Positions 9,794-42,701 are shown, numbered from the stretch's first letter. The stretch is 64,000 bases of DNA from Trypanosoma brucei (GCA_000002445.1 CM000207.1:704001-768000); one strand, 5' to 3'. Program-made: numbers and translations. Notes: generated from the letters alone by a model not told the origin.

Positions 9794-9815
9794 GCACTTC
9801 TATACACTAAGGGTG

Positions 9816-24432: not shown

Positions 24433-24976
24433 TGTTTTTCGGCGTCGTCTTGTCATCCCATCCCGCCCCCCTTCCGTATCATGCTGCGTCATTCCCCTTC
24501 GCCACTTATCAACACAGTCGTGTGCACTCCTACTGTTCTCACATCAGTCAGTGCAGCTTAGTTACCTCGTTTGGCTTACTTTGACTTAAGTACCTTTTTT
24601 TGTGCTCATTGCGGTTGCTGTATGACTGCCAGCTCTCAGATGTCTGGACTTTCCATTCTCTTTATGTTGACCCTACACACCTGCCCCACACTGCATTTCC
24701 CCCCACCGCTCCCTGTTTGCACCTTCCTGCTGTATGGGTGGTGTAAAATACCCATTAGCATTATAGCAGTTGGTGGCTTGTTAATAACTGAAGTTCGGAT
24801 TACCGTGGCGAGTAAAGGTTTCCGGTGATATTATGGTCGTCAAACGCCGTGGAAATGGCCGGTTAGGCAAACCTCCGACAGATACTGGAGTGAGTGAGAA
24901 CTCTACCGGTGGAACCCCACCCCCGGAGTCTGCTTCTCAACGTGGCGGGGCGAAACAAACTACGGTTGCTTCCGCG
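24270..24976 (+). repeat. dispersed copy of the T segment (BRAP2 3' end, intergenic, first 48 codons of the 361-aa gene)
   Basis: Near-identical to 10976 to 11687 and 17463 to 18174. ORFs 24571 to 24828 and 24833 onward mirror 11282 to 11539 and 11544 onward. Confidence 0.75.
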
Positions 24977-25018
24977 ATGGAGGTGCTTCCGTTTGTTTTC
25001 CTTTGGTGCCTTGATTAA
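24833..25018 (+). pseudogene. truncated start of the 361-aa hypothetical gene (48 conserved codons, then unrelated sequence and a stop)
   Basis: MVVKRRGNGRLGKPPTDTGVSENSTGGTPPPESASQRGGAKQTTVASA is identical to copies 1 and 2 and then diverges into MEVLPFVFLWCLD followed by a stop. Confidence 0.4.
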
Positions 25019-26060
25019 GTGGGAACAGAAGGGCACATGCTGGTCGTCAGTATTTTTTTGTGAGGCCAAATTAAATTTAGTGTTTTTGTTCAGTGCTTTT
25101 TTTTTTGACTTGGAAGGTATTCAAAATTATGCTGGGGAGGTGCTTTTGTCCCTCTGCAGGAAAGGAGGGTGCTGACGCTTTTTGTATATTATGCGCTTGC
25201 TTGCTTTTGCCCACGTGGCTTGTGTTGGGTGAATAAATTGAATATCAATATTTGTGGCGTAATATCAACGTTTATGTGCCCTTTTTTATTGTTTTGTGAA
25301 GGAGCATATGACTCATTCCCCCCTCGCGTCTCCCCACCGTTGCATTGCCTTTCCAGTGTGTCGGTGACTGAAGCGGAGGTTTTGTCCTGTCTTTTATAAA
25401 GTTATTCCTGGTGAGGACTGGGTGGATTTCCGGTGCCTGTGTGCAATACCTATTTTCTGATGCGGGGTAGTGGATGAGGTTTCCACGCCAGCGGGCAGTT
25501 TGACTTTTCTTTTGCAATGTGTATCGATTGGTTATTGATGTGTTTTGCCTTGGTTGTTTTCTAGTTCTGAGAGCGTTATGCATTTTCCATACTTTTCGTT
25601 TCCTGAGGTGTGCACTTGCTGACCTATTGTGGCAACATGCGAAGCATCATGTTGAAAAGGTGTCATCGTTGAGCGTCGTATTTATTCGGTTCCCACCTGG
25701 AGCAAGATGACGAGTGCCCTCGTGGACTTACGGTGTGACAGAAGTGGTTGTTGCCGCGTGAGAAATACTTTGTGTGGAAATTGGTGTGAAGGTTGCCCTC
25801 GTAATGCTTAAATTGGCGTTTTGGGAAGATGGTAGTATCAATTTGTTTGTGTTATCTGTTAATGCCATTTTTTCTTTTTTGTGCGTCAAAGGTATCCGTT
25901 AGCGTCCCAACTGCCCCTTTTTTGTTAGCGATTTCCCCGCAGCAGGCTGTATGAAGATGGTTGGAAGCAACTGTTCCCCGTTCGTTGTTTTGGTCAACCT
26001 CTGCTCCTTTTATTTTTCTTCTTTAAACAAGTTGTTACGTGGTAGAATACGTGCACTGAT

Positions 26061-29000
26061 ATGGCATCGGAGGCAGCGTTATCGCTTCCTGCTGATGATG
26101 AAAAGGTGCAGGCGGATGCTGCTACTAATCACGGTACCACAACGCCCCCCTCTTCAGTAGAGACAGCACCAAGTACGGCCACTGGTGCTGTTGCACCGAC
26201 GGGTTCCAGCGAACGGGAAAGCAACGTAGTAATGCCCGCGGTTGCTGTTGTGCCCGCATTGGAAGCAAGTGAATGTCAGGTGCAAACAGAGCCGGGAGGG
26301 AACGACCCTATTACGTCTGGGGAGCTTTCGCTCGTTAATGACCATACGGCACCGCAAAAGCTGAATGCTGATGTGAAGTTGTTCTCGGGTGACAACCGGC
26401 CTTCAAAGTCGTTGGCTGCACCTTTCAGGGGCCCTAGTAATCGACCACAAGGAATTCCCCCTGGCGGCGGCACCCCTTTATGGCCCCCCAATGCTCCTCT
26501 TGGCCAAACTGTGATGTCGCTTCCGCATCCACCCATGCCTCCTCATCAACTTTATCAACCTCCTTTGATGATTCCAACACTGGTGCCGAATATGCATCCA
26601 CTGATGGCACCGTTCATCTCAGGCATGGCCCACGCCCCACAGCCGCCCCCGCCCCCCCCACCGCCGCCAGGGTTTGGACCCCCACCGGGTTCGTTTGGGC
26701 CACTGCCGTTTCCCGCAGCATTGAATGGACCTCTTGGCGCACCGCCTCCGCCCCTCATGATGCCCAATCCACCCGATTTGGCAGTTTTTCAACCGCGGTT
26801 CCCTGGTGACAAGATGGCGGCGTCGCAGTCATCCCAGGGTCCGGCGCTTTCGAAGCAAAAATCACATGTGTTGTCGGCTTCATCACCAAGTGCGAAGATA
26901 ATTGTTGGTAATGCTTCCCTTGCCGCACATGTGTCAAATGATCCGCCTAAATTCTCGTGCGTATTGCTTTCTGGAATATCAGCAGTTGGCAAAACAACAA
27001 TGGGAAGGGAGTTAGTTAACGAACTACAGGCAGATGGTTTAGGCTGGGTATTTTTTTCTGGTGCTGATTTCATTTCAGCTCCTACAACGAGGCGGGCCGT
27101 GTGGGAGACCACAAAGGAGGTATTTGATGCCCTGGAGAAGCAGCTGGAGAGGCTTCTTGACCAACAGAAGGAAAAGCGAGACTTGAAGGGTCTTGTCATC
27201 GACAAAAATGTGAAGAACGTAGAGGACATTTTTTATTTGGCGGCGCTGCTAAGATCGAAGCAGATCCCATTTGTTGGAATTGTAGGCATGGAAGCTGATG
27301 ATGATGAGGTGCTTCTGCAGCGCATGGGTGGCGAGCGGGAACTTCATGAAAAGCTAAAGTACCACCGTGTTATTCATTATAGGATCCGTAATTTAGCCAG
27401 GAAAGCGGCTATGTACCGAGAGATTGACGCCAACAAGCCGAGGCAAGAGGTTCTCAACGCATTGCGCACTAAGGTGCTGGGTTGTTGCGCCCAACCACCG
27501 CAGAATGGTATACTTTCTGATCTATACGTGAAATCGGCTTCCATTTCAATGGTTGATGACTATGCCGAATACTACACGGTTGTGACACAACTTTTCGACT
27601 TAATTAAACCATTGAATGGCTCTGCACACTTCCCCGGAACAACGAACTACGTTCCCTTGTCAACCCGTGATATGGCCGACAAGAATCGTGTGAGTGCAAT
27701 CAAGGAATCCTACGGTGCCCGTCGATTTAACAAAGGCACCCGCTACCTGCTCATGTATGATAAGGGGAAATTGTACCTGATTTCGACTCATCTTAGGGCG
27801 GTATTACGCCTGTCTCCCAAAGCGCTGTTAGGAGATAAGATGGCTTCGGTAACGTGCGCCGTGTTTGAGGGTGATTTAGTGAGAATAAGGGAGGACCCGC
27901 AGACCGAAATATTTCTTGTTTTTGACGTTCTCTTTTGGAATAATGCAGCGGATCCGGAGGGCAATGAGGTGACACAGATGAGTATGGAACAGCGTCATGC
28001 CCTTCTGAGCGCCCACCTATGCAGTGAAAGCAGTGCCTTCTCCCCTACGGGTACTGACTGCGTTGTGGCCTACCGAGCCACGGTAAAGCTTGAGGAGATT
28101 CCAAAACTTCTGGAGCCATGCGGTTTCCCAGGTGAGGGCATAATATTCCAACCCACTTCTTCGGTACACAATCTGAACAAAGTGTATTTGTGGCGACCCG
28201 CGAGCAGTATTTCAGTAGATTTTCGCATTGGTGCGTTGAGGGGGACACGAGAAGAGAGTGCTGTTTCGGAGAGCGGTGAATTGTGTGCGGATGCGGGCTC
28301 CCCAACGCTGAATGATTCTGCTAATCCCGGTGCCACCGCTGGCCAATCTCAGTCCCAACTGTCAAATAGTAGTAACCCGGCAGGGCAGAGCGCTGTGGGC
28401 TCCGGAGGGTCTAGCCATGTGCGTTGTAATGAAGGCGGTCCCACGCGTACCTTTGAGCTTGAAGTCTATGACAAGCAAGAAAAGGAATACACACAATTCG
28501 AAGACTGTACAGTGGATGTGAGGCACCCAGACGTGGTAGAGGGTTGCATATGCACTTGTGCGCTCGCGGACGAAAAGGGCCGTAAGTGGAGTTTCCAGAA
28601 TATCTGCTACGATGCGGTTCGTCCTGCATACAAGCGAGATGTAAGTTCACTGCTCGAGCACTCTATCATTCCAAAGTCCAAACTTCTTCAGTGGCTCGCT
28701 AGCGAAAAGATTACACCACCACTTCCAAGTGGTACAGTGCCACAAGCGGCGACTTCGAGTGCCCCACAGCAACAATTCTGGGAGGCGGTTTCGAATTCCA
28801 TTCGACAACCTCCACCGCATGCACCCCCGGCGTACGCCAGCGCCGTCCTCATGCAGCATGCTATGCCCCGACCAAACCCATCAGGGGCCCACGGCGGCGG
28901 CACAAACCTTGCAGCACTTGCAGAGGTAGTTGCCCCAACTGAAATTTCAAAGGGACACCAACCGGTGCTAACATCAACCTCTAGCGCGGGTGTGGGCTCT

Positions 29001-30005
29001 CCTCCCCGGGGGCTGTCAATTGGTCAACCACCAAGCTACAAGATGCATGGGCTTTTGCAGCAGGGGCTATCGACGTCACCGGGAACAAAGAAGGTTGTGG
29101 GAGTGGCACCCGACAACACTGTGGCTGCTGTTGGTGGCTCTTCCGCGGCGGGCGGCAGCGCAACGAACACGTATGTGGTGCAGTTGTTAACGTCAATGGT
29201 TCGCTCCGTACGCACTGTTCGTAAGGATGGGGTGGGCGACGAGTGCCAAAGTACAGCGGGTGCGACTCGACAGGAACAGCACCCTTCATGTGTCGATCGG
29301 TCAGACGGCGATCAGCACAGACGAGGGCACACTCGTTTTGATGATGTGAAGGATAGGAGGGAGCGGGGTCACGGGAAAATGCGGCGGGCCACCAGTGGTA
29401 CACCTGGTCGCTGTATGGGGTGTGGCAAGGACAAGCCAGCGGAGGAACTTCGCTTCCGCCCAAAGGACAATTTGTACTGCTATGACTGCTGGGCAGCGAA
29501 GGGTTGGGAAACATGCCGTGAGTGTGGAGAGTTTAGTAGGGGCTACCACGAACGCACGCGTGAGTGTGTGGGTGAGTTTTACTGCAACAACTGTTGGGAG
29601 AAGTTCAAGGAAGGAGACAACCAAAAAAAGGAAGGGAGGAAAGAAGATACCGAAAACCAACAAGGGGAGAGGAGGCGGCGAAGACCCAAGCGGCAAATTC
29701 AAACAGTAGAAGTGAAGGATGAAGGGGAGAGCAAAACTGCAAGCGATTTTACAGCGGAGGCAGCGGGGAGAGACGGTGCGGCGAAGCGGCGGGCGCGGCG
29801 TGGACAGAAGAACGACACCAAAGACCGTGCAGCTGTTGATATTCATGTTGGATGTGAGGAAGTTAGCGAAGGGAGGACCGCCGCGAACGACACGAATGCC
29901 GCGGAACAGGCACAGGAGGACGGCACGAAGTCAAATAAGAGGCATGGAGTTGAGAGTAGATCCAACAAAAGGCATAGGCGGAAGGAGGCAGTTAGGGGCG
30001 AATAA
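26061..30005 (+). CDS. large multidomain protein (1,314 aa): Pro-rich N-terminus, P-loop NTPase/kinase-like domain, capping-enzyme/ligase-like nucleotidyltransferase motifs with degenerate motif I, two Cys4 zinc knuckles, Arg/Lys/Glu-rich tail
   Basis: Walker A is LLSGISAVGKTTMG near nt 26975. Downstream motifs occur in the canonical order of covalent nucleotidyltransferases. Motif I would be NKGTRYLLMY, where KxDG has become K-G. Motif III is FEGDLV. Motif IV is GEGIIFQP. Motif V is KVYLWRPASSISVDF. The zinc knuckles are CMGCGK..(15)..YCYDCW and CRECGE..(15)..YCNNCWE near nt 29410 to 29600. The domain order (P-loop, then NTase) is that described for the kinetoplastid capping enzyme CE1. Confidence 0.55.
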   Translation: MASEAALSLPADDEKVQADAATNHGTTTPPSSVETAPSTATGAVAPTGSSERESNVVMPAVAVVPALEASECQVQTEPGGNDPITSGELSLVNDHTAPQKLNADVKLFSGDNRPSKSLAAPFRGPSNRPQGIPPGGGTPLWPPNAPLGQTVMSLPHPPMPPHQLYQPPLMIPTLVPNMHPLMAPFISGMAHAPQPPPPPPPPPGFGPPPGSFGPLPFPAALNGPLGAPPPPLMMPNPPDLAVFQPRFPGDKMAASQSSQGPALSKQKSHVLSASSPSAKIIVGNASLAAHVSNDPPKFSCVLLSGISAVGKTTMGRELVNELQADGLGWVFFSGADFISAPTTRRAVWETTKEVFDALEKQLERLLDQQKEKRDLKGLVIDKNVKNVEDIFYLAALLRSKQIPFVGIVGMEADDDEVLLQRMGGERELHEKLKYHRVIHYRIRNLARKAAMYREIDANKPRQEVLNALRTKVLGCCAQPPQNGILSDLYVKSASISMVDDYAEYYTVVTQLFDLIKPLNGSAHFPGTTNYVPLSTRDMADKNRVSAIKESYGARRFNKGTRYLLMYDKGKLYLISTHLRAVLRLSPKALLGDKMASVTCAVFEGDLVRIREDPQTEIFLVFDVLFWNNAADPEGNEVTQMSMEQRHALLSAHLCSESSAFSPTGTDCVVAYRATVKLEEIPKLLEPCGFPGEGIIFQPTSSVHNLNKVYLWRPASSISVDFRIGALRGTREESAVSESGELCADAGSPTLNDSANPGATAGQSQSQLSNSSNPAGQSAVGSGGSSHVRCNEGGPTRTFELEVYDKQEKEYTQFEDCTVDVRHPDVVEGCICTCALADEKGRKWSFQNICYDAVRPAYKRDVSSLLEHSIIPKSKLLQWLASEKITPPLPSGTVPQAATSSAPQQQFWEAVSNSIRQPPPHAPPAYASAVLMQHAMPRPNPSGAHGGGTNLAALAEVVAPTEISKGHQPVLTSTSSAGVGSPPRGLSIGQPPSYKMHGLLQQGLSTSPGTKKVVGVAPDNTVAAVGGSSAAGGSATNTYVVQLLTSMVRSVRTVRKDGVGDECQSTAGATRQEQHPSCVDRSDGDQHRRGHTRFDDVKDRRERGHGKMRRATSGTPGRCMGCGKDKPAEELRFRPKDNLYCYDCWAAKGWETCRECGEFSRGYHERTRECVGEFYCNNCWEKFKEGDNQKKEGRKEDTENQQGERRRRRPKRQIQTVEVKDEGESKTASDFTAEAAGRDGAAKRRARRGQKNDTKDRAAVDIHVGCEEVSEGRTAANDTNAAEQAQEDGTKSNKRHGVESRSNKRHRRKEAVRGE

Positions 30006-33000
30006 ACAAAAAGGTAGGGGTTCCACACTTAACTGTCACGGTTATGTGGCAGGTTTATGCAGCAAGCGGTGACATTTGCCAATTTGTAGTGTGTTTCCCT
30101 CCCCCTCCCCCTGCTGAGGGGGGAAGGGGGAGGGATCCGCACGTTTTTTTGCGCGCATAATACTTCCCTTATTTCTGTTAGTGGACGAATGTCGTTTGCT
30201 TTTCGTGTTTTCTCAACCTGCAGGAGGTGGTGTGAAAAAAAAGAATTTCATGAAAGAAGCCATGGGGTAGCCCGTTATGAAACTTCTCGGCCGCCTAAGG
30301 GGAAGACAAGGGGGAAGAGAGCTTGAGGAGGGAGGGATTTAGGATGAAAAATGTGTACCATTTATTGTACAGGGTGCATCTAAATGATTGACGCCGTTGT
30401 GCGTTAACTCATTACAACAGTTGTTATCTTTTCATTCCCCCCCCTCCCCACTGCATCTTCTTTTGTTTTCCTCGAAAGGGGGAGTTTTCTTTCTTTCTTT
30501 CTTTTCATTCAACTCTTCCGTGACTGCCGTTACTTTTGGACCGCGCATGTCTCCCTCTACATACTGGAGTAGCGAGCGATGTTTCCGTTCCATATTTCCT
30601 CAACCGAAGGATGAAAAAAAATAAAAATAAAAAGAAATGGGCGAAACGATGGTGTGGAATCGATCCTTGATGCGGAGGGGGAAAGTGTGTGTTTGTGTTT
30701 TTGTTTGTGTGGAAGGTAAGATCGAAGCAGAAAAAAGAATAAGAAGGATAAGAAGAAAAGGAAAAAAAAAAGGATTAACAACCGTGCAAGGGGAACGATG
30801 ACATCTGCTTTTTTTTTTTTTTTTAATTTTCTTCTTACGCATTTCATTTCATTTCATTTCACTTCTGTTGTTTTTTTTTGTTTTTTGTTGTTGTCGCTCC
30901 TGTTAGACATCATTCCTAAAATTGCGCGGTGAAGTTCTTACGGTGTGCCGGGAAGTATGAAGGAGGGAGAACGGAACAGAAAGCGAGCGATAAAGCGAGT
31001 GTTAAGGGAGTAAGAACAAAGGGAAAGGAAGAGAAACAGAGAAATGTATGGGAACAAATAAAATAAGAGAAAAGAAAGGAAAAACAAACAAACAAACAGA
31101 GAGATGAAAGGATGCAGAGGAAAAGGAGGGGGAAAAGTGTTCCCGTTGTTGCCTACTTCCTTTCCACAATCCTCTTCTCTTTCTTCCTTTCCTACGTGTA
31201 CTATTTTCCCAGTGATTCACTATCATTTTTTCTTTTTCTTTTTTTTTTTTAATGGTTATTTGTTTTTTGTTCATTCACAAGAAAAAAATCATTTTCTTGT
31301 TTTTTTTTCCGATGTTGTTGCTGTTGTTATTGTTATTGTTATTGTTATTGTTGTTGTTTTGTTTTCGAGACAATCCCTACGGAGAATTATCACACCTCTT
31401 TTTTTTCTTTTTTTTTTTGTATCATTTTTTTTGTTTTTACAACCTAAATTATTAAAGGAGTGTGTGTGTGTGTGTGTGTGGAAGGAGGAGAGGAGGAGAG
31501 GGGGAGAAAGAAATAAATAGAATGAAATGAAAAAGTGAAAAAGGGGTTTAATAACCTCTTGTTCTTCTTCGTTTTGTTTTTTTTTTTTACAGTTCATCTT
31601 TACAAGGCTGCAGGCAGGGGAGATGAAAAGAGGATGGGATGAAACCCCCTCCTCCAAAAAACAACGACAAAAACAACAACAAAGACAATAATAATAATAA
31701 TAACAATATCAGTAACAGTATCCAAAAGATGAAAAGTAAACAAAAAATAATAAGAATAATAAATGAAGCATCAAGAGGGGGAAAGAGCTACCGTGCGGTA
31801 AAGTATGGAATACGGTGTACGTTTCATGCAGGCGCGCACATGTACTTATATGTGTGTATATTTTTCCTCATCTTGTTTTTTTTGTTTGTTTTCCATTATC
31901 TTTTTTTTCTTTTTCTTTTTCTGTCTTTTTTCTGTTTTTTTTTTCTGTTTTTATGTTTATATTTGCGTTACTTTTTTTTTTCCCTCCTCCTCTTTTAGTT
32001 ATCCTGCAGTCCTTTTCCCGTCATTCATTCATTCTTTCATTCTTTTGTTCGTTTGTTTTTTCTTTGGCATCCCAGCAGCACTTGTTTATATATTTATAAA
32101 TGCCTGCGCGTTTGTGGTATTGTAGTGAGCAGCAAAAATAACAGAAATACAAAGGCATCGGTTGAATGAGTTTGTACTGCAACTGCGGCCGGAAAATTTT
32201 AAAAAAAAAAGAAAGAAAAAGAAGAAGAAAAAAAAAAGAAAGAAAAAGGAGGGGATTGTGTGATGCAGGCAGTTTAAAAGCAACGGAAGGGACACGGGCG
32301 CTTCGGTTGCGAGGTGTAGCGACTCACATCACATTATTCGAACCAAAAAGAAAAAATAAAATAAAAGACAAAATAAAAGAAAAGAAAAGGAAAAAAAAAG
32401 TGTATCGGTTTACATATTTCTGTTTTTTTTTCCTTTTCTTTTATTTTGGTTTGGTCGTGATTGATATGTTTCGTTTCACGTTGTTATTGTTCCCTCGTAC
32501 TTCCTTTCTTTTTTGTTTTTTTGTTTTTTTTTTCCACTCCCTTCACTCCCTTCCCTCCCTTCCCTCCTCCTTTGGGTTTATTTCCGTTTTCGTTTTTTTT
32601 TCTCCTTTTCCCACGCACGCAGTTGTTATTTCCCCTCTTTTTTTTTTTATTTACTTCATTTTTTTTTTGTGTATTTGTGCAACCTCCGCTGTGTTTGTGA
32701 GGACGTATCGCTTTCAGTTGATTTTTTGTCCCCTTCTTTTCTTCTCTTTTTCTTTTTTTCTTTTTTGTTATACCGTCGTGTCGTTTTTTTTCCTTTTTTT
32801 CGTTTATTTTGCTGTTCTTTTTTGCGTTTTGTGTTTTGTTTTTTATATTTTCATGTTTTTATGTTGTGAGGCATATGACAGTCGCGGTCGGCCGAACGCT
32901 AAAAAAAAGAAAAACTGATCGCCAATAATCTTACATCAACAAGGCGTTTTTCTTTGTGTTTCTTCTGTGATTTTTTTTTTGTTCCCTCTTTTCACTCACT

Positions 33001-33319
33001 CCATTCCCATTCGTTTCAACTTCATTTTGTTTATTTTTGTGTTTCGTTTTTGTTTATTTTATTTTGTTTTTTTTTGTTGTTGTTGTTTCCTTCATTCGTG
33101 CTTCCTGTTGGTTTTTTTCCCCATATTTTATGGTATATGAAGTGTCAGAAGCAGTAAAGAACGGAAAAGAAATGAGAAATGGATCGCGTAGCAGCAGCGG
33201 CATGTAAGAATAAATAATAACGATGATGGTGAGGAGGAAAAGTAAGAGGATAATAACGTCAGTAAATAACCACAAATAACAAAATGATAATAATGTTTAT
33301 TATTATTACTATTACTTTT

Positions 33320-33397
33320 GTTGTTTTTGTTGTTACTATTATTACTATTATTATTCAACAACAATAATAATAGTAATAATAGTAACAACAAAAACAA
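33320..33397. repeat. perfect inverted repeat: 36-bp arms with a 7-nt spacer
   Basis: Left arm 33320 to 33355 is gttgtttttgttgttactattattactattattatt. Right arm 33363 to 33397 is aataataatagtaataatagtaacaacaaaaacaac, the exact reverse complement. Spacer is caacaac. The + strand changes from T-rich to A/G-rich around this point. Confidence 0.8.
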
Positions 33398-35608
33398 CGA
33401 AAACAGTATTGATGGATATAATAATATTGGGTCTAGATAATATGTGAGTGTGAAGAATGTAAGGGGGAGATTACGCGTATGTTTACATCAAAATAAAACA
33501 AAGTGACGGAAGCACAAAAGGACAAAAAATGAAGAAGAAGAAGAAGAAAAGAAATGAAAAAAAAAGAAAGAAAGGAGGAAAGAGGGAAGAGGAGGAGGGG
33601 AGACGTACCGGTATAAAAATATGAAAACAGACACGCGCGCACGCACATATATCTTTTATATATATGTCTTTTATATATTTATATATATATATACATATAT
33701 TCATATATACATATATTCATATATACATATATACATATATATATATATATTGTATATATTTAAACGAATACATGTGTTTTTTTCTTATGTTATTTTATCT
33801 ATTTAGGTGCGGGTAAGTGTACATGTTTTTTTCTTCTTTATTGTTTATTGTTTATTTGCTTTATTATTATTATTATTATGTTGAAACGATAGGGGGAGGA
33901 GGAGGGATGAGAAGGTTACTTTTCTGTCATCCATTTTTTCTCTTTATCTTTTTTTTTCTTTTAGTTTGTTTTTACTTTTTGATCCCTCCGTCACTGCGGC
34001 ATGTCCGGATGTACTCCCATTTTTCTTTTTCTTTTTTCTTTTTTGTTTCGTTTTATCTTACTCATCCGCCTCCAACCGTGCATTTTTTTTTTCCGTTTCA
34101 CTTAGTTTTGTGTTCTCCAGTTCTTTTTTTTTCTTTTTTAATTCACTTCAATTTTATTATTTTGCTTCACTTGCCTACTTTTTTTTTTCTTTTTTTTTCG
34201 CTTGTTATGTTTCCGTCATTTTATCATTGCGCTGCCATTGCGTTTTCTTTTTTTCTTTTTTTTTTTCCACACCGTTTCTCCTTTTGTTTCTTTTCTTTTT
34301 AAAAAAAAAAAAATTAGAAAAAAAAATATTGCGTTCCCCTCACTCATTTTCCTATCCCTTTTAAAACATACATACATACATACATACATGCGCACGTATA
34401 TGTATATGTAATAATACAAATATATGTGTGTACAACTTATGAGCATTATGGGAGGAAAGGAAGAGGAAGGGGAGTGAAAGGAGGATAGTAAAAAAAAAAA
34501 AAAAGAAAAATGAATAATTCAAGGAATAAAATAAAAAATAAAAAAATAAAGAAAAACGAATAGTGAAAACATGTTTAAATTATGATTGTTGTTATTATGT
34601 TTTTTTTTGATATTGATATTTTACACAGTGGAGTGTTGACTGAAAGGTTTCCAAACCTCCTATTTCCCTTATTTACTATCACATACATATCACATACGCG
34701 GGCTTTTCACTCTACCTCCCCTTTCCCTCCATTACGCAAGAAATAAATAAATTAAAAAGAAAAAAAGAAAAAAAAAAAGAAACGAAGAAAAAAAAACCGA
34801 AGAGTGATCGAAGGACAAAGTATAGTTTATTATTATTATTATTATCATTTTGTTTTCAAGTTTTTAATAGCAGAAAGAAACGAAAAAGGCAGAAAAGGAA
34901 AGGAGAATCACGAGTGAAATGATTGAGAAATGTTAACGGGTGGTGAGTGGTGTGCGCGTTTTGTCGTATTTGTGCATGTGAGTTGACTGGTGGAAAAAAA
35001 AAAGGAAAGATTTAAATAGGCCATTTGTTTTACGCAGAGGATGGGAAACTAAATAAAACCAGACGAACGGCTGAAGCCGTTTTTTTTTCTTTCATTTTCT
35101 TTCATTTTTTTTTTTTTGGTGAAGACGCAAACAGCAGCAGAACACGCAAGTATGAAATTGAAGGCGCCGCTCGCGTTAAGTGGGGTTTTCATGGAGGGCA
35201 AATTCGGTTGCTGCAAAGCATAGCCTTTTAGCAGCACGTTAAGCTCAGTGGAAAACTTACATGTGTGTTCGTGTTGGGGGCGTGTTTTTGTTTTTAAGTG
35301 GGAATGGTATTTTTGAAAACAAAAACAAAAACAAACGAACAAACAAACAAACTCAAATGAGTGCTCTTGTACACGCCGATCTGGCGGCTGTGCGCAAGGG
35401 GATACAAACGTAAAGAAAGAAGTTTATTATATTTTAAAGACAGGAAGAAAGTAAAAAGAAAAGAAAAACGCAGTAATTCCTCCATTGTAGTTTACGCAGG
35501 CGCGCCTCACCGCTCTTGTTTGTGCCATTTCCCCTTCTACAAAGAGACATGTACACATATGCCGCGTAACATAACTGCTGCATGAAGTGTGTGAAATGCC
35601 GTATATTT

Positions 35609-35700
35609 CCACTCTTTTCTTTCATTTTATTATCTGATTGTACCTCCTTTCCTTTCCCTTCCCCCTCCCTTTTGCTCTTTCTTTGTTAATTCATTAATAG
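35609..35700 (+). promoter_or_regulatory. polypyrimidine tract plus AG upstream of ACS1 (putative trans-splice acceptor)
   Basis: A C/T-rich run (ccactcttttctttcattttattatctgattgtacctcctttcctttcccttccccctcccttttgctctttctttgtt...) ends in AG, about 225 nt upstream of the ATG. Confidence 0.35.
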
Positions 35701-35925
35701 GTAAGTTGCCGAATATTATTTGAACTACATTTTATAGACTTGACTAAACTGTTCAACAACCAGGAACAATAACAAACGCCCAACGACAGGAGGGGTATCC
35801 CAACAATACAAGGGGGAGGGTAAGGGGGGGGGAAAAAAACTTACTGAGGAGATCGTTTCAACAAACCAGGTAAACGAGAAGTGACGATAATTAAATATTA
35901 ATAGTAGTGTGGCAGTTGTGTTTCG

Positions 35926-38022
35926 ATGGGAATGTACGTCACTAAGCTTCTCTCCCTCTGGAGTCACTGGTTTGAGGTGGATGACGAGGTGATCATTGCG
36001 AGACAAAAGTTTGGGCCACTTGCTCACATTTGTGGACCAGCGGAGGGCGAAAACTGTTCACCTGTTTACCGCTCCATAGGAGTCACAGATGAGGAGCAGG
36101 CGCGCATTACGAGGGAATGGTATTACGGCGAGCACTTTCTGAAACAGTTGGAGCAAACATGCACGAGCAGAAGAGATACTCTGGCAGTTGCTTACCGCAC
36201 AATTAACAAGGTTGAAAAGGAGTGGCGCGAGGACCATAATGGGAAGAGGCGCGAATGGCAGGTTACACATCTCAACGATCCGGTCTACATGACATATGGT
36301 GAATTATGGGAGAACTCTGTGGCCTTTGGAAAGGGTTTAAGGGAGTATGGAGCAAAGGAAGGGGACCGTGTTGCCATTTACGAGGATACGCGATGGGAGT
36401 GGCTTGCCTCTGCTATTGGGGTTTGGACGCAGTTGATGGTTACTGTAACAGTTTACGCTAACCTCTGCCGGGAGGGGCTGATGCACGCGCTCAAGGAGAC
36501 GGAGTGTGCCGCTATTATTTGCAACGGCCAAAACATAAAGGATCTCATTACCTTACTGAAGGAGGTCAATCTCACCAACACCACGTTGGTCTATCTCGAC
36601 TCTCTACCAGATGGGTTAAATGATGAAGGCATGCGCTTAATACCATGGAAACAGGTGCTGGAGACGGGAATGAAGAGTAACCTGGGCTATACCATTCCTG
36701 GAAATTGTGACACAACGGCTTTGATCATGTACACAAGTGGCACAGTGGCGGCACCCAAGGGTGTCATGCACACCTTTGGTTCTCTCACCGCCAGTAAAAA
36801 TGGGCTGGCGGACCGCTTCCTTGAGTGTATTGGACCCAAGGAGGAGGGTGAGACATATGTATCTTACCTCCCCCTTGCTCACATTTTGGAGTTTATTGCT
36901 GATGTGGTGATGCTTAGCCGCGGTACCTTGGTGTGTTTTGGTTCGCCACGAACACTCACGGATGATACGGCGCGACCACGAGGTGACTTGAAGGAGTTTA
37001 AGCCAGTGTTTATCGTTGGAGTCCCACGGATCTTTGAGACAATACGGAAGGTTGTGGAAAGTCGGCTACCACCTGTGGGTAGTTTTAAGAGGACCCTCTT
37101 TGATACTGCCTATGCTGACCGACTCCGTGCTCTCAAGGAGGGGAAAGATACGCCTTTCTGGAATGAAAAGGTTTTTAAGGTCCCACGCGACATGTTCGGT
37201 GGCAGGCTGCGTGGAGTGGTATGTGGTGGCGCACCTCTCGCTGACAGGACACAAGAGTTCATGCGGGTTGTCTTCGGCCTTCCGCTGGGACAAGGCTACG
37301 GATTGACAGAAACGTGCTGCAACGGAAGCATACAACGTTTGGGTGAGTTATATCCATCAGTTGGTCAACTCCTGAAAGGGGTTGAAGGGAGGCTATTGGA
37401 TACAGATGAGTACAAGCACACTGATAAGCCATTCCCGCGAGGGGAGCTCTGCCTTCGTGGGTCGTTTATGTTCAAGGGCTACTACAAGCAGGAGGCCATG
37501 AGCAAAGAAGTGTTGATTCCAGGGGGTTGGTTCCGCACGGGGGACGTTGTGGAAATTGGTGAAGATAATGCCCTGCGAGTCATTGGCCGTGTTAAGGCAC
37601 TGGTGAAGAACCTACTCGGAGAATACATTCAGCTGGAGTACCTGGAAGTGATTTACTCACAGCATCCATTGTCTGCCCCTAATGGCGTCTGCATTCTTGT
37701 AAATCAGCGGCGGGCATACATATGTGCCCTTGTAATCACCGACGAGGAAAGGGCTAAGAAGTTTGCCCAAGAAAATGGAATTGGTGGAACGTGGCCCGAG
37801 ATACTTAAGGACCCGACTTTCCACCAACGTGCCGCCAAGTCGTTGTCGAATTTCGGCGCTTCAATTGGTAGAAAACCCTTTGAACTGCTCCGTCAGGTAC
37901 GTGTGATCGCCGATGAGTGGACGGCAAAGAATGGGATGCTCACTGTCTCGATGAAAATCCGTCGCAACAAGGTGGAAGAAAGGTACGGCGATGTCATTGA
38001 ACAACTTTTCAAGTATGAGTAA
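35926..38022 (+). CDS. ACS1: long-chain fatty acyl-CoA synthetase (AMP-forming), most divergent member of the array
   Basis: The AMP-binding motif is MYTSGTVAAPKGVMHT. YLPLAHILEF, GYGLTE and the FRTGD and RVKALVKN C-terminal signature motifs of acyl-CoA synthetases are present. It is about 50% identical by eye to the three downstream paralogs. The numbering follows the known tandem ACS1 to ACS4 order in T. brucei and is an inference. Confidence 0.8.
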   Translation: MGMYVTKLLSLWSHWFEVDDEVIIARQKFGPLAHICGPAEGENCSPVYRSIGVTDEEQARITREWYYGEHFLKQLEQTCTSRRDTLAVAYRTINKVEKEWREDHNGKRREWQVTHLNDPVYMTYGELWENSVAFGKGLREYGAKEGDRVAIYEDTRWEWLASAIGVWTQLMVTVTVYANLCREGLMHALKETECAAIICNGQNIKDLITLLKEVNLTNTTLVYLDSLPDGLNDEGMRLIPWKQVLETGMKSNLGYTIPGNCDTTALIMYTSGTVAAPKGVMHTFGSLTASKNGLADRFLECIGPKEEGETYVSYLPLAHILEFIADVVMLSRGTLVCFGSPRTLTDDTARPRGDLKEFKPVFIVGVPRIFETIRKVVESRLPPVGSFKRTLFDTAYADRLRALKEGKDTPFWNEKVFKVPRDMFGGRLRGVVCGGAPLADRTQEFMRVVFGLPLGQGYGLTETCCNGSIQRLGELYPSVGQLLKGVEGRLLDTDEYKHTDKPFPRGELCLRGSFMFKGYYKQEAMSKEVLIPGGWFRTGDVVEIGEDNALRVIGRVKALVKNLLGEYIQLEYLEVIYSQHPLSAPNGVCILVNQRRAYICALVITDEERAKKFAQENGIGGTWPEILKDPTFHQRAAKSLSNFGASIGRKPFELLRQVRVIADEWTAKNGMLTVSMKIRRNKVEERYGDVIEQLFKYE

Positions 38023-38957
38023 CGCGTGCGGTCAGCGAGGGATGGTGTTGTGGACCACACGTTGGGTCTGTGCTGTGGGGTTATCGCTGGGTGAATCATT
38101 TGATGGTTGCTTTTTTTTTCTTCTTTTTTTTCCCTTTTTCGACACTTTTGTGTGTCTGGGCAGTTGGTGTTGTTATGTTCTTTTTCTTTCTTTTCTTGAC
38201 TTTGGTGCCCCTCCATCCCTTATGCCCCTTGTGTTTCGTCTCTTGGTTAAATTCCGACCCTGACAGTTGTTGTTATTATTATGGTTATCACTATTTTTTT
38301 CTTTGTTGGTGACGTTGGTGGCAGGAAATGTAACACATGAAGTGAATATACCCAACAGGTAGTAAAGAAAGTGGGAGTGAGGAGCGGGGGCAGTTTCGCC
38401 AACTGCGGTGTGCACGACTGAAAATAATGGAAGAGGAAAATACAGAAAGAGAAAGTGAAAGGGGGAAAAAAAGAGGAAAACAGAAGTGTCGCTCCACTGG
38501 TGAAGTGGAACCACGAGGAAACAATATTTCTTTTCCCCCTTCCTGTCTTCAAAAAGGAGTGCGGCGCATCGAGTAGGAAATGAACGATTCAGCCACCGTG
38601 GCACCAGATGTAAAACATTGGTTTAAACAGCCGGTAGGAGACGTTTGTAAACATAATGGACGAAACATATACCTACACTACACTGATGTTAATCGTAAAC
38701 ATGGTTTGGAGTGAAGGGGTGCGTTGCATGCGGGCACAAGTTTGACAGTTATTCCTCGCTTCTTACTTTTATTTGTGTTTTCCCGCGGAGGAACGTTTTG
38801 CCGCTCAGACGGATGTTTGCGCTACTACGCGTGCGTGGCTGCATCAGTAGCAGTTATGTGAATGCCATCGATTGATTGTGTGGATTCATCGGAGTGACCC
38901 TTATGTGTGTGTGTGTCACACACTATTATTTGTGTGTGCAGTACTTCTTTGAAGTGT

Positions 38958-39080
38958 TTCTTGTGCTCCTCGCCCTCTGGCTTCCTTACACCCCGCTGCT
39001 TCCCCCCTTTCCCTTTCCCCTTCAACTTTTTCTTAATTCCTCTCCCGATTTGATTCTTTTTCTTTAAATATAAACGAGGG
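38958..39080 (+). promoter_or_regulatory. polypyrimidine tract plus AG upstream of ACS2
   Basis: cttccttacaccccgctgcttccccccttttccctttccccttcaacttttttcttaattcctctcccgatttgattctttttctttaaatataaacgAG. Confidence 0.35.
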
Positions 39081-39435
39081 TTTTCAGTGGGTCTTACAAA
39101 CTTACCTTTTTCTTATTCCCCCCATGTCATCAGCTGTGGCCATTCGAGAATTTCGCCGTTCCCCCACTTTGTTAACTTATCTGATGTTCAGTGCCTTTCC
39201 TTCCTCGGACTTTTTTTTTTTTACAAACATTTCCTTTACATTGCCTTTAATACACGCATGCACGTTGGTATAATATGCCAACGTTCCTTTTGGTGTATGC
39301 TGCGCAACTGAACCTAGCAGAGACAAATCCAGGTCCCTTACAGCACTGCAGAAGATTGGGCAGGATTCCTCATATATATTATATATCTTACAGTATATAC
39401 GTGTATTTATTTTACACACAACACTTTTTAAAAAG

Positions 39436-41562
39436 ATGAACACCGCTTCTGCGCTGAACGAAATCGAGGTGGCGGTCCTCCAGCTTATGGATGAGGCCAA
39501 CAGCCGAGAATCGGCACCAAACGAAGACATTGTGCAGCTTCGGAGCAAAGGCTCACAGAACGAGGCGATTCCACAGACAGAAACGGAGAATATGTCGGCC
39601 ATCTACCGTCGTGCCGGAGTCAGTGGCGAAGAGCACACACGACTCTGTCGAGAGTGGTACTACGGTGTGAACATGCCACAGAAGTTCATGGCAATATGCA
39701 AGAAAGGGGGAAGTCGCAGGGCTTTCGCGTACCGGGTTCTGTCAAACATATCGAAAGAAGTGCTAAGGGACCAAAATGGGCTTGAACGTTCATACGATAT
39801 AACATACTTTAAGGAAACGTGTTATATTAACTACCGTGTCCTCTGGGAAAATATCGAGTCGTTTGGGCGAGGTCTTGTGGAGTTGGGTATTTCACCAAAC
39901 TCCCGAGTCGCCATATACGAGGAGACGCGGTGGGAGTGGTTGGCAACAATTTACGGTATCTGGTCGCAGAATATGGTTGCCACCACAGTGTACGCCAATC
40001 TTGGGGAAGATGCGCTCGCGTATGCCCTCCGGGAAACAGGATCCCGTGCAATTATATGCAACGCAACAAATGTGCCAACACTGGTCCGGTTGGTGCAGAG
40101 CAACCGCATTCCGCCCTTGGTGATCATTTACATTGGTCAGCTACCTCCGGATACAAAAAGCACACATTGCCGCATCATCTCTTGGCTTCATGTCGTGGAC
40201 AATGGTCGCCTCTCAGATGAACCACTTCGAATCCCCACTGACAATGACCAAGTTGCTTTCATCATGTATACGAGTGGTACGACGGGGGACCCCAAAGGTG
40301 TCATTCACACACATGGCTCACTGATCTCGGGTGTTACTGCTTGTGCCGACTACGTGAATGAACTGATTGGTCCTTACGAAGAGGGTGAGTCGTACTGCGC
40401 TTACCTGCCTCTTGCCCACATATTTGAATTTGGTGTCGTCAACATCTTTCTTGCTCGCGGTTCTTTTGTTGGGTTTGGAAACCCCAGAACACTTCTCGAC
40501 ACGTACACTCGTCCACACGGTGATTACAGGGAGTACAAACCGGTTTTCACAATTGGCGTGCCGCGAGTGTACGACACGATAAAGAAAACGGTCGAGTCAC
40601 AGCTGGCACCCCGAGGGACACTACAGCGCCGTATATTCGAACACGCCTTCCAAACGAGACTTCGAGCCCTCAAGAAGGGTGAGGAGACCCCGTACTGGAA
40701 CAGGTTAATTTTTTCTCCATTTCGGTCCATGCTTGGAGGTAAGATGAAAACGATGCTTTCCGCCGGAGGGCCCCTCAGCGCACCAACGCAAACATTTCTT
40801 CATGTTGTATTTGGCATCATGCCACAAGGTTGGGGCCTCACGGAGACGGTGTGTGTTGGCACAAAGCAAGTCGCAGGTGATATGGAACCGGCCGCTGCAG
40901 GCAAGCAAGAGCGCACATGTGAAATGCGACTACTGGACGTGGAAGGATACAAGCACACCGATGAGCCCGATCCTCGTGGGGAAATTCTTCTGCGTGGTCC
41001 ATTCCTCTTCAAAGGGTACTACAAGCAGGAAGAACTAACCAAGGAGGTGCTTGATGAAGATGGTTGGTTTCATACGGGTGACGTTGGCAGCATCGGCCCC
41101 AATGGAACCCTTCGCATCATTGGCCGCGTGAAGGCCTTGGCAAAGAATGTTCTTGGAGAGTATGTTGCCATGGAAGCTTTGGAATCCATGTATGCACACA
41201 ACTCGCTGAGCATGCCCAACGGTGTTTGTGTCCTCGTGCATCCTGACAGACCGTACATTTGTGCGCTTGTTCTTACTGATGAAGCGAAGGTTGTTGCGTT
41301 CACGAGGGAGCATGGATTGAAAGGTAAATACCCTGAAGTTCTGCAGGACCCCGAGTTTCAGAAGAAGGCTACAGCATCATTTCAGGAGACGGCTCGTGCA
41401 TCTGATCGACAGAAGTTTGAGATTGTACGTCACGTACGCCTACTGAGTGATGAGTGGACTCCTGAAAATGGTGTGCTGACGGCCGCAGGCAAACTGAAGC
41501 GACGCGTCATCGATGAGAAGTACACTGATACTATTGTGTCACTTTTCGTGGAGGAGTGCTGA
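39436..41562 (+). CDS. ACS2: long-chain fatty acyl-CoA synthetase
   Basis: 708 aa with MYTSGTTGDPKGVIHT, YLPLAHIFEF and GWGLTE. Its last ~210 codons and two internal patches are identical to ACS3 and ACS4. Confidence 0.85.
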   Translation: MNTASALNEIEVAVLQLMDEANSRESAPNEDIVQLRSKGSQNEAIPQTETENMSAIYRRAGVSGEEHTRLCREWYYGVNMPQKFMAICKKGGSRRAFAYRVLSNISKEVLRDQNGLERSYDITYFKETCYINYRVLWENIESFGRGLVELGISPNSRVAIYEETRWEWLATIYGIWSQNMVATTVYANLGEDALAYALRETGSRAIICNATNVPTLVRLVQSNRIPPLVIIYIGQLPPDTKSTHCRIISWLHVVDNGRLSDEPLRIPTDNDQVAFIMYTSGTTGDPKGVIHTHGSLISGVTACADYVNELIGPYEEGESYCAYLPLAHIFEFGVVNIFLARGSFVGFGNPRTLLDTYTRPHGDYREYKPVFTIGVPRVYDTIKKTVESQLAPRGTLQRRIFEHAFQTRLRALKKGEETPYWNRLIFSPFRSMLGGKMKTMLSAGGPLSAPTQTFLHVVFGIMPQGWGLTETVCVGTKQVAGDMEPAAAGKQERTCEMRLLDVEGYKHTDEPDPRGEILLRGPFLFKGYYKQEELTKEVLDEDGWFHTGDVGSIGPNGTLRIIGRVKALAKNVLGEYVAMEALESMYAHNSLSMPNGVCVLVHPDRPYICALVLTDEAKVVAFTREHGLKGKYPEVLQDPEFQKKATASFQETARASDRQKFEIVRHVRLLSDEWTPENGVLTAAGKLKRRVIDEKYTDTIVSLFVEEC

Positions 41563-42611
41563 TGAATGGTGCGGATCTCCATGGGGCGGTCTATTAATTG
41601 TGTTTGTGATGTTAATCAGTTCCTATTGTCCATCTGAATTGTCCTCTCTACACGTTCCATTATCTGTTTTCCGTCGGTCCAACTTCTTGATGCTGGTGGC
41701 GACAGCTTGCACGACAGGTTGTAAGCGTTAAGGCATGCAGGGTTGGTTTTGCAGCACGGGGGAGGGTATTGAAATACGTAATTTTTCCTAGTTGATACAT
41801 TTGATTACACTTGGTTTTGTTGTAGTGACTCTGTTTATTTACTTATTTTTCGCATAGGGGGATCCGATAGTGCAGACAACACGGTGTGCAAGTCGAGAAA
41901 CCCAAGTTACACCTGTATGCTCGTTTTCACGGGGTTGTGTATGCGTGAGTGCTATTTATTGGGTAACAGAGTCACCCTGCTGTTGCCTTTTTTCTTCCGC
42001 TTCGGGTGTTGGGGATTCTTCTTTTATCATTATTATTGTTATCCTCTTTTTTACTTGTTTTTAATTTTTGGCTTACGGTCAGGAGATTACTTACCCCCCT
42101 CCCCATCCAGTGGTTTTCCACATTGTCTAACTCACCGTAGGCCTTAGGCGCTTTGACATGATTTTCCATTCGCCCCTCCTGTGCACTTATGTCCGCGTCC
42201 CGTTACTTCTCACTCGTGCACTGTGCCTCGGTGCGATTCTTCCATTGTTTGTTTTTATTGACTACAAGTTTTTGTGGAAGGTTTCTTATAACATAAGCAA
42301 CTTAGGAATCACTGAGACGCATTGGCACACATTTCCCACCGCATCCCTCCCCTTGCTGTAGTCTTGTGTTGTTACGAGTGCCAGATGTTTGACCATCCAA
42401 TATGTACGACAATGACATCTGACCGCGGCACGTACGGGATCTGAAGGGGATTATCATGACAGCTGCAACCCGTAAATGTATGCTCGCTGATCCTGGTGCG
42501 CGTGTCTGTATGTGTGTAGGTTGCGCATCCTCAATAGTTACGAACCTTCATATTTCCCATTTCTTGTCATCTCGCGAGCACAAACCCTGGAGGCCACAGG
42601 TTAACCGCGTA

Positions 42612-42701
42612 CCTGTTATTGCTTTTTTCCTCTGTTTTCCTTCTGTTCTTCCCATCTTCGTCACGCCCCTCCTCATTTCTCTATCTTGCTTGCTACGATA
42701 G
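42612..42701 (+). promoter_or_regulatory. polypyrimidine tract plus AG upstream of ACS3
   Basis: cctgttattgcttttttcctctgttttccttctgttcttcccatcttcgtcacgcccctcctcatttctctatcttgcttgctacgatAG. The same tract recurs at 46111 to 46200 before ACS4. Confidence 0.4.

Follow-up and report, generated by a model that had tools for sequence, protein, structure and literature searches.

The 3' UTRs of Trypanosoma brucei mRNAs measure from 10 to about 6000 nt, and the median distance between a poly(A) site and the splice site is 142 nt (Kolev 2010). Polyadenylation is coupled to trans-splicing by a mechanism that has been reviewed (PMC6597758). Examples of very long forms are the 3' UTR of RBP10 (7.3 kb) and the mRNA of DRBD12 (8.4 kb). 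DRBD18, which binds such 3' UTRs, has been proposed to keep splicing factors off internal polypyrimidine tracts, and ZC3H28 binds long low-complexity 3' UTRs.

The interval considered here is from chromosome 9 of T. brucei TREU927 and belongs to a window of 64,000 nucleotides, which is the whole stretch of DNA that was analysed; a window position is the Tb927_09_v4 position minus 704000. The interval separates a gene for a hypothetical conserved protein from ACS1:

26061-30005, + strand: upstream coding sequence, 1314 aa, Tb09.160.2650 (GeneDB v4), hypothetical conserved, P-loop protein
30006-35925, + strand: gene-free low-complexity inter-CDS interval, 5920 bp, without tRNA gene or Rfam family
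35926-38022, + strand: ACS1 coding sequence, Tb927.9.4190 / Tb09.160.2770; mRNA to about 39115-39148

Both flanking products are 100% identical to the TREU927 proteins. The Pfam matches of Tb09.160.2650 (AAA_18/AAA_16) are sub-threshold.

Size and composition of the interval

The boundaries given in the original prediction are exact, the stop codon of the 1314-aa ORF being at 30005 and the ATG of ACS1 at 35926, and its description of the gap as unusually long and gene-free agrees with our measurements. With 5920 bp the interval is the longest of the 21 inter-CDS gaps in the window (median 1273 bp); 19 of the others are 259-1764 bp long and one has 3237 bp. The coding strand is, as had been stated, unchanged across the interval, since all 22 large ORFs of the window are on the + strand.

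The GC content is 0.347 in the interval; it is 0.453 in the remaining non-coding DNA of the window and 0.523 in its coding sequences. Tandem repeats (TRF) cover 30% of it versus 3.8% of other non-coding DNA and 0.5% of coding sequence, and 65% of its 60-nt segments are of low complexity (3-mer entropy below the 1st percentile of that of coding sequences) versus 12% in other non-coding DNA. Microsatellites with a period of at most 6 nt are of 19 unit types. The interval is thus indeed dense in microsatellites; it does not, however, consist of them only, as had also been claimed: complex sequence of the usual kind makes up its two ends (30006-30485 and 34850-35925) and several islands measuring 150-370 nt. 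GT-rich tracts occur as well, e.g., (GT)10 at 31460-31480.

An alternation of T/C-rich and A/G-rich blocks, which had likewise been noticed, is clearly present: 57% of the 100-nt segments are skewed (purine or pyrimidine content of 65% or more) versus 11% elsewhere, and the skewed segments form 24 blocks in approximately six purine-to-pyrimidine cycles. Pyrimidine-rich blocks are:

31858-33116, + strand: span of the large pyrimidine-rich blocks 31858-32071, 32480-32846 and 32953-33116, with a purine block (32197-32398) between the first two
34000-34287, + strand: pyrimidine-rich block of 288 nt from the purine/pyrimidine block scan

Search for genes and relics

We found neither a hidden gene nor a new element in the interval; sequence of this kind is already known from trypanosomes. 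ARAGORN found no tRNA gene in it, and at the gathering score Rfam had no match in the whole window. The ORFs of the interval have no Pfam match and are low-complexity artefacts; those that were checked are broken in the sister subspecies. One of them is annotated:

32166-32918, + strand: 250-aa ORF Tb09.160.2710 (XP_803717.1), 'hypothetical protein, conserved', judged spurious

In the other three genomes this ORF is shortened to 11, 11, and 23 aa. It has no Pfam match, forms a singleton cluster and has no transcript of its own (Kolev 2010, Table S2). We therefore reject Tb09.160.2710 as a real gene.

Could the interval be relic DNA, that is, decayed genes (e.g., extra ACS copies) or a retroelement eroded to low complexity? 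The purine-to-pyrimidine periodicity of approximately 0.5-1.2 kb loosely resembles serial intergenic modules, and tandem duplications tend to arise in the neighbouring region. However, blastx against the proteins of the window gave a single match at the chance level (E = 8.7), blastn against the rest of the window, ACS repeat units included, gave none, and a tblastx comparison with syntenic gaps from four further species yielded nothing beyond low-complexity matches. As the long gap moreover predates the split between Trypanosoma and Leishmania (see below), a relic origin is very unlikely.

Hairpin and small RNAs

The interval contains 74 inverted-repeat pairs, among them one conspicuous structure:

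33305-33413, + strand: palindromic microsatellite, perfect 40-bp hairpin with a 7-nt loop, in all four genomes

Its minimum free energy is −51.7 kcal/mol (z = −13). In two of the four genomes the loop is inverted and the arms are expanded, and the centre is indel-variable. The original prediction had offered the interval as a hiding place for small RNA genes. Candidates would be a snoRNA or other small-RNA gene in the complex islands, or siRNAs from the hairpin and other purine/pyrimidine fold-backs. A stem of this stability in four of four genomes, the number of inverted repeats and the possession of Dicers and Argonaute by T. brucei (Tschudi et al., 2012) would be in favor of this. The published siRNA-producing inverted repeats of T. 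brucei, however, have arms of 422-10,011 bp, and chromosome 9 carries none of them; tandem repeats other than CIR147 gave no small RNAs, and the supplements contain no coordinates in the region 734-739 kb (Tschudi et al., 2012). When Rfam was searched at E values up to 1, plant or animal miRNA models matched AT-rich hairpins of the interval at the chance level; the miRNA-like character of these sub-threshold matches is due to the AT-rich hairpin at 33305-33413. The inverted loop and the variable centre are better explained by an unstable palindrome than by a conserved RNA gene. With no tRNA gene, no Rfam family and no overlap with published siRNA loci, a small-RNA source in the interval is highly improbable, and the suggestion found no support.

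Transcription across the interval

The interval is a gene-free intercistronic spacer within one polycistronic unit that RNA polymerase II transcribes on chromosome 9, situated between same-strand protein-coding genes without a start between them. One transcription unit extending from Tb09.160.2340 to Tb09.160.3380 spans it, and no transcription start or unit boundary is given within it in Table S14 of Kolev 2010, which was built on 5'-triphosphate reads and for which agreement with published histone-mark sites was reported. An internal boundary, where termination or re-initiation would be marked by base J plus H3.V or by H2A.Z plus H4K10ac, respectively, could be suspected from the unusual length of the gap, from GT-rich tracts such as the (GT)10 at 31460-31480 and from the fact that a long gap is kept at this point of synteny in other species. 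We nevertheless give such a boundary very little credence in view of the single unit, of the lack of a tRNA gene in the interval, and of the expression of the same-strand flanking genes, which for Tb09.160.2650 amounts to 18.2 RNAs per cell in procyclic forms (Table S6, a 5'-end estimate and as such uninformative on the 3' end) and for the gene on the downstream side to 8 RNAs per cell (Kolev 2010).

ACS1 splice site and the probable 3' UTR of Tb09.160.2650

The 5' end of the ACS1 transcript has been mapped to 739701, which corresponds to window position 35701 (Kolev 2010, Table S3). Among the ACS1 RNA-seq contigs, which come from four separate runs, the longest (L010) starts at 35700 and L011 at 35708; three end at 39111-39115.

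35643-35700, + strand: polypyrimidine tract (35643-35684) and AG acceptor (35699-35700) for ACS1 trans-splicing, from the tract scan, the published 5' end and RNA-seq
35701-35925, + strand: ACS1 5' UTR, 225 nt, from the published 5' end (Kolev 2010) and RNA-seq contigs

In the interval these last 225 nt alone belong to ACS1, as its 5' UTR. What precedes them is probably a 3' UTR of Tb09.160.2650 of approximately 5.5 kb:

30006-35560, + strand: inferred 3' UTR of Tb09.160.2650, approximately 5.5 kb, with its 3' end predicted about 142 nt upstream of the ACS1 acceptor

Since a trypanosome gene is polyadenylated approximately 100-200 nt ahead of whichever active trans-splice signal follows it, the splice signal of ACS1 would direct polyadenylation of Tb09.160.2650 to a site near 35500-35600, and the gene would therefore have a 3' UTR of approximately 5.5 kb and an mRNA of approximately 9.6-9.8 kb. 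This would most likely put the 3' UTR at the top of the published range. From the ACS1 5' end at 35701 and the absence of an internal transcript from the published lists we infer that an extended 3' UTR is the best supported of the three readings in the original prediction. It is favored also because the second long gap of the window (56406-59642, 3237 bp), which has the same composition (GC 0.37), is a mapped 2.6-kb 3' UTR, namely that of Tb09.160.2910 (2575 nt, 56406-58980), with the gap being listed as alt3UTR (Kolev 2010).

The sense strand of the interval carries 25 polypyrimidine tracts that are 25 nt or longer, and an AG lies 0-173 nt downstream of every one. These make it plausible that proximal polyadenylation and unstable or stage-specific UTR-derived RNAs occur. 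Tb09.160.2650 could even have a short proximal 3' UTR, the rest of the interval giving rise to SL-capped, polyadenylated lncRNAs that are unstable, scarce or stage-specific. The tracts with their AGs and the approximately six cycles resemble real intergenic processing regions, UTR-internal alternative processing has been found in 394 genes (Kolev 2010), depletion of DRBD18 frees such fragments from other long 3' UTRs, and the other long gap of the window is itself the one listed as alt3UTR. Yet the data for procyclic forms, to which the following tables of Kolev 2010 are restricted, have no corresponding entry: there is no novel transcript in 729908-746269 (Table S7), Tb09.160.2650 is missing from the alternative-processing Table S3, and all eleven GeneDB v4 ORFs in the interval are listed under 'no detectable transcript' (Table S2). 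The supplement of one later lncRNA catalogue, searched by six gene IDs only, gave no match. In addition, reporter work cited in PMC6597758 indicates that the tract nearest the downstream AUG is usually preferred. We consider a short 3' UTR followed by lncRNAs to be possible but doubtful.

If Tb09.160.2650 has the long 3' UTR, its polyadenylation would be governed by the ACS1 splice signal, and the 24 remaining long sense-strand tracts would be splice-like signals that the cell normally disregards or masks, in the manner proposed for DRBD18 in other long 3' UTRs of T. brucei. The purine/pyrimidine low-complexity blocks probably arose where constraint is weak, by slippage of replication and by local duplication, and they would also offer ample binding space to RNA-binding proteins with a preference for long low-complexity 3' UTRs.

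Variation among strains and species

The comparison of lengths between strains that had been suggested as a check showed that the interval ranges from 5860 to 6420 bp among four genomes, which reflects microsatellite slippage and one 487-bp duplication:

within 31399-31939, + strand: tandem duplication of approximately 487 bp in T. b. equiperdum (CM010680), where the gap has 6420 bp

The four genomes differ by 70 indel runs in the interval, almost all of them in homopolymers or microsatellites. Gap openings number 12.7 per kb in the interval; the neighbouring ACS spacers have 1.5-3.5 per kb, and coding sequence has none. Judged from this indel load, the interval appears to be weakly constrained.

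It had also been proposed that the interval is prone to recombination and that the ACS array can thereby grow or shrink. Indeed, ACS copy number differs, T. b. equiperdum having 3 copies and both TREU927 and DAL972 having 4, and the interval is polymorphic in length. But it lies outside the repeated ACS unit, with which it has no sequence in common, and its colinearity holds across the four genomes irrespective of ACS copy number. The coding sequences of ACS2-4 are 96.6-98.4% identical over the aligned stretches, and because of this mutual identity (approximately 96-98%) the paralogues supply their own recombination substrate. The proposal can in practice be dismissed.

At the same syntenic position, with the orthologue of the 1314-aa gene on one side and the first ACS gene on the other, a long gap is found also in T. 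vivax (4.7 kb), T. theileri (3.3 kb) and L. infantum (4.1 kb), and in T. brucei (5.9 kb) and these three species it is 1.7-2.5 times as long as any neighbouring gap. By synteny, the long gap is older than the Trypanosoma/Leishmania split. No sequence conservation of the gap was found across these species. Positional conservation without sequence conservation could mean that there is selection on length or on low-complexity character. We regard it as improbable that the long spacer is a functional element conserved by its position; if it were, its possible roles would include those of a regulatory 3' UTR for the upstream gene, of a processing 'buffer' in which an internal choice of splice and poly(A) sites tunes the expression of ACS1, and of a source of stage-specific non-coding RNA.

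Comparison with known systems

The interval is ordinary for trypanosomes. With the siRNA loci of Tschudi et al. (2012) it has in common a transcribed, near-perfect fold-back, but the arms there have 422-10,011 bp, whereas the stem in the interval is a 40-bp AT-rich microsatellite. Its downstream 300 nt are those of an ordinary trypanosomatid intercistronic region, with a textbook polypyrimidine tract, AG and 225-nt 5' UTR. It differs from such regions in being 4.65 times as long as the window median, in having approximately ten times their density of polypyrimidine tracts and in an indel rate that is 4-8 times that of the neighbouring spacers.

The 3' UTR of Tb09.160.2910 (56406-58980) resembles the interval in its low GC content, its purine/pyrimidine tracts and homopolymers, and its location in the same unit and on the same strand; it is half as long, and its 3' end and alternative processing have been mapped experimentally. 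From the long 3' UTRs of RBP10 and DRBD12 the interval differs in that its presumed owner encodes an uncharacterised P-loop protein and not a regulator of development, and in that its 3' end is a prediction. Like them, however, it extends over several kb between same-strand genes of a polycistronic unit, is rich in polypyrimidine and low-complexity sequence, and has internal splice-like signals that are apparently not used.

The interval and its flanking genes

The interval at 30006–35925 (+) lies exactly between the last base (30005) of a 1,314-aa ORF (26061–30005) and the ATG (35926) of a 698-aa ORF (35926–38022), which is 100% identical to fatty acyl-CoA synthetase 1 (ACS1) of T. brucei TREU927. 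ACS1 (Tb927.9.4190, previously Tb09.160.2770) heads a tandem set of four ACS genes on chromosome 9. Its ORF starts at Tb927_09_v4:739926 (Kolev et al., 2010; PMC2936537) and window positions are therefore positions in this version of the chromosome (v4) minus 704000. All large ORFs of the window are on the + strand. The 1,314-aa ORF is Tb09.160.2650 ("hypothetical protein, conserved"), which adjoins the ACS array from Trypanosoma through Leishmania. Its P-loop matches (AAA_18/AAA_16) are all below threshold, and in some orthologues (Angomonas and two other assemblies) the capping-enzyme nucleotidyltransferase domain PF01331 is found. Further upstream (9320–22700) a 6.48-kb unit with ORFs of 203, 361, and 210 aa is duplicated in tandem (9320–15800 versus 15808–22287, 99.7% identical), and a third copy begins at 22295.

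With 5920 bp the gap is, as originally predicted, unusually long: the median of the 21 inter-CDS gaps in the window is 1273 bp, 19 of the others span 259–1764 bp, and one has 3237 bp. The GC content runs from 0.29 to 0.43 along the gap versus about 0.5 in its flanks, and overall it is 0.347 versus 0.453 in the remaining non-coding DNA of the window. Tandem Repeats Finder covers 30% of the gap, 3.8% of other non-coding DNA, and 0.5% of coding sequence; 65% of the 60-nt windows in the gap are below the 1st percentile of CDS windows in complexity, and 19 types of microsatellite unit with a period of up to 6 are present. The alternation of purine-rich and pyrimidine-rich blocks is real, 57% of the 100-nt windows consisting to at least 65% of one class versus 11% elsewhere, and the 24 blocks form about six purine-to-pyrimidine cycles. 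The claim that there is only microsatellite sequence in the gap was overstated, since both ends (30006–30485 and 34850–35925) and several islands of 150–370 nt within it are ordinary complex sequence. About 90 nt past the stop codon of the 1,314-aa gene there is a C-run/G-run hairpin (30097–30135, CCCTCCCCCTCCCCCT...GGGGGGAAGGGGGAGGG), which is the spot with the most substitutions and indels between strains at the 5′ end of the gap.

Search for genes and gene relics

The original prediction considered the gap as a hiding place for small RNA genes, which is not supported: neither ARAGORN (no tRNA) nor Rfam at the gathering score (zero matches) found a known family in the whole window, and at E ≤ 1 the only matches in the gap, far below threshold and all located on AT-rich hairpins, were to miRNA models of plants and animals and to related kinds of family. 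The single structure of note, a perfect 40-bp hairpin at 33305–33413 (minimum free energy −51.7 kcal/mol, z = −13), formed by a palindromic microsatellite, is present in all four genomes compared (TREU927, T. b. gambiense DAL972, T. b. equiperdum CM010680, and T. equiperdum OVI). Its 7-nt loop reads CAACAAC in two of them and, as the reverse complement, GTTGTTG in the remaining pair, a flip-flop-like polymorphism, and the genomes with GTTGTTG also show a 24–30 nt microsatellite expansion of the hairpin arms. Loop inversion and arm expansion point to an unstable palindromic microsatellite rather than to a conserved RNA gene. The published inverted repeats from which siRNAs are produced in T. 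brucei have arms of 422–10,011 bp, with none on chromosome 9, and no tandem repeat but CIR147 yielded small RNAs (Tschudi et al., 2012). The supplements of that study contain no locus at 734–739 kb; four "miscellaneous" chromosome 9 loci are given there without coordinates.

A hidden protein-coding gene was also rejected. All 33 ORFs in the gap that reach 60 aa are translated low-complexity sequence, and the two longest have no match in Pfam. GeneDB v4 once placed eleven ORFs here (Tb09.160.2660 and Tb09.160.2680–2760), ten of them labelled "hypothetical protein, unlikely", and all eleven are among the "annotated ORFs not producing a detectable transcript" (Table S2 in Kolev et al., 2010; PMC2936537). 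Five spurious ORFs of this kind were called in the gap of DAL972. When ten gap ORFs were looked up as exact proteins, eight were absent from the collection searched and two were found solely as TREU927 annotation. Two spurious ORFs are still deposited in NCBI and UniProt, each as a singleton cluster: the 250-aa ORF at 32166–32918 (XP_803717.1, "hypothetical protein, conserved"), of which 11 aa are left in T. b. gambiense and in T. b. equiperdum and 23 aa in T. equiperdum, and the ORF at 30557–30847 (XP_803712.1, "hypothetical protein, unlikely"). The gap ORFs examined, being of low complexity, without a transcript of their own, and broken in sister subspecies, are artefacts, of which at least two remain in NCBI. 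Nor could a trace of an ACS copy or of another local gene be detected, since blastx of the gap against every protein of the window gave a single chance-level match (E = 8.7) and blastn against the remainder of the window gave none.

Variation between strains and the ACS array

The gap is colinear in all four genomes and ranges in length from 5860 bp (T. equiperdum OVI, where the locus contains Ns) through 5920 bp (TREU927) and 5948 bp (T. b. gambiense DAL972) to 6420 bp (T. b. equiperdum CM010680). Among the four, the gap shows 70 runs of indels, nearly all of them in homopolymers or microsatellites that differ in length, whereas 5.7 kb of CDS flanking it has a single gap column. T. b. equiperdum owes its additional 0.5 kb to a local duplication in tandem near 31572:

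L002 (the T. b. equiperdum CM010680 locus) ~5000–5500, equivalent to window ~31399–31939: duplication of ~487 bp

Compared with DAL972, the gap has 1.24% mismatches and 12.7 gap openings per kb, the ACS1–ACS2 and ACS2–ACS3 spacers have 0.8–0.9% and 1.5–3.5 per kb, and coding sequences have 0.3–0.9% mismatches without gap openings. From these rates it follows that the sequence of the gap is weakly constrained and prone to slippage, which is enough to account for its texture.

That the gap might be a recombination-prone spacer allowing the ACS array to expand and contract finds no support in its colinearity. It shares no sequence with the ACS units (blastn), whereas these are 96–98% identical to one another (ACS3 versus ACS4 CDS, 96.6%), and the gap was rejected as the substrate for array expansion. 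There are four ACS genes in TREU927 (35926–48567) and DAL972 and three in T. b. equiperdum (L002 10001–19144); the number of copies may truly vary or may have been reduced by collapse in the assembly.

Comparison with other trypanosomatids

In T. vivax, T. theileri, L. infantum, and T. cruzi the orthologue of the 1,314-aa gene is likewise followed by the first ACS gene. In T. vivax (4717 bp), T. theileri (3333 bp, 375 N included), and L. infantum (4129 bp) the syntenic gap is the longest in a locus of about 22 kb, by a factor of ~1.7–2.4; in T. cruzi (2079 bp) its length is unremarkable. Between species, blastn and tblastx found low-complexity matches only, the weak tblastx matches being (TA)n tracts translated as "IYIY" or "IYIYIY". 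Such a tract as a positionally conserved feature was rejected because many other spacers carry them. A long syntenic gap of unlike sequence in distant species indicates that the gap is old and its sequence not conserved. Conservation of length without conservation of sequence is the sole feature that leaves room for selection on the length or low-complexity character of the gap, which we regard as very improbable. From a comparative point of view, it is mildly curious that trypanosomatids so distant have kept a long gap at one point of synteny.

Transcript boundaries

The 5′ end of the ACS1 transcript has been mapped to v4 739701, which is window position 35701 (Table S3 in Kolev et al., 2010; PMC2936537), so that just the last 225 nt of the gap belong to ACS1. 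The signals before it are:

35643–35684 (+), polypyrimidine tract of 42 nt preceding the ACS1 AG acceptor
35699–35700 (+), AG acceptor of ACS1, directly before the mapped 5′ end

Independently of this mapping, ACS1 is found on four transcript-like contigs assembled from sequencing runs ERR7929159–163, the longest of which starts at 35700; three end at 39111–39115 and the shortest at 38452. Nucleotides 1–23 of the ERR7929162 contig (L012) match neither the window nor the spliced leader, possibly owing to chimeric assembly.

Between v4 729908 and 746269 no novel transcripts are listed (Table S7 in Kolev et al., 2010; PMC2936537), though several trans-spliced and polyadenylated ones (Tb9.NT.20, NT.100, NT.21, NT.22, and NT.24) lie in other gaps of the window:

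10632–11317, 17119–17785, 21463–22660, 24759–25908, and 42269–42581, novel transcripts

Some other "intergenic" gaps are thus not truly empty, unlike the one under study. Alternative UTR processing was unambiguous for 441 genes, to which Tb09.160.2650 does not belong (Kolev et al., 2010; PMC2936537). Six gene IDs looked up in the supplement of a nanopore lncRNA study do not occur there, and the supplements of Nilsson (2010) do not list the genes. According to Table S14, a single Pol II unit (Tb09.160.2340 to Tb09.160.3380) spans the whole region; the table is based on 5′-triphosphate reads and reportedly matches the published sites of histone marks (Kolev et al., 2010; PMC2936537). There is therefore no mapped transcription start inside the gap, and on this basis an internal start was rejected.

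A probable long 3′ UTR of Tb09.160.2650

Of the three readings in the original prediction, that of an extended 3′ UTR has the best support: we infer that the gap is probably in the main a single long 3′ UTR of Tb09.160.2650. Trypanosomes have no dedicated poly(A) signal, the machinery gauging the distance upstream of an active polypyrimidine tract (PMC6597758), and poly(A) site and splice site lie a median of 142 nt apart (Kolev et al., 2010; PMC2936537). Since the only acceptor mapped in the gap is that of ACS1, Tb09.160.2650 would be expected to be polyadenylated near 35500–35600, with a predicted 3′ UTR of ~5.5 kb. Published 3′ UTRs of T. brucei range from 10 to ~6000 nt with a median of 388 nt (PMC2936537), so that the predicted one would be at the top of this range.

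The 3′ UTR reading is supported by the gap at 56406–59642 (3237 bp), which is of matching composition (GC 0.37, tract-rich) and is experimentally 3′ UTR: Tb09.160.2910 (tricarboxylate carrier, 55422–56405) has a transcript that reaches v4 762980, which is window position 58980, with a 3′ UTR of 2575 nt and alternative processing (Kolev et al., 2010; PMC2936537).

It should be considered, however, that polypyrimidine tracts of 25 nt or more occur 25 times on the sense strand of the gap (4.2 per kb, compared with 0.4 elsewhere), that an AG follows every one of them at a distance of 0–173 nt, and that the mapped acceptor belongs to the last tract only. These 25 combinations lend credibility to the main rival reading, in which polyadenylation is proximal and the rest of the gap is released as unstable or stage-specific non-coding RNAs; we consider it less likely than a predominantly single 3′ UTR.

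The long 3′ UTR is also supported by the fact that 3′ UTRs of great length and low complexity form an established class in T. brucei. For example, the 3′ UTR of RBP10 has 7.3 kb and the mRNA of DRBD12 has 8.4 kb; ZC3H28 prefers long RNAs bearing low-complexity sequence in the 3′ UTR; and DRBD18 binds polypyrimidine tracts of long 3′ UTRs, by which, as its authors propose, their use as splice signals is prevented. Depletion of DRBD18 results in shortened mRNAs and in trans-spliced, polyadenylated fragments derived from UTRs. If its 3′ end is confirmed, the 3′ UTR of Tb09.160.2650 would be among the longest in T. brucei, and its 24 unused splice-like signals would be a good natural substrate for studying the masking of polypyrimidine tracts. 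Long, low-complexity 3′ UTR or intercistronic regions are already known throughout trypanosome genomes, and the gap is an uncharacterised but ordinary member of this class.
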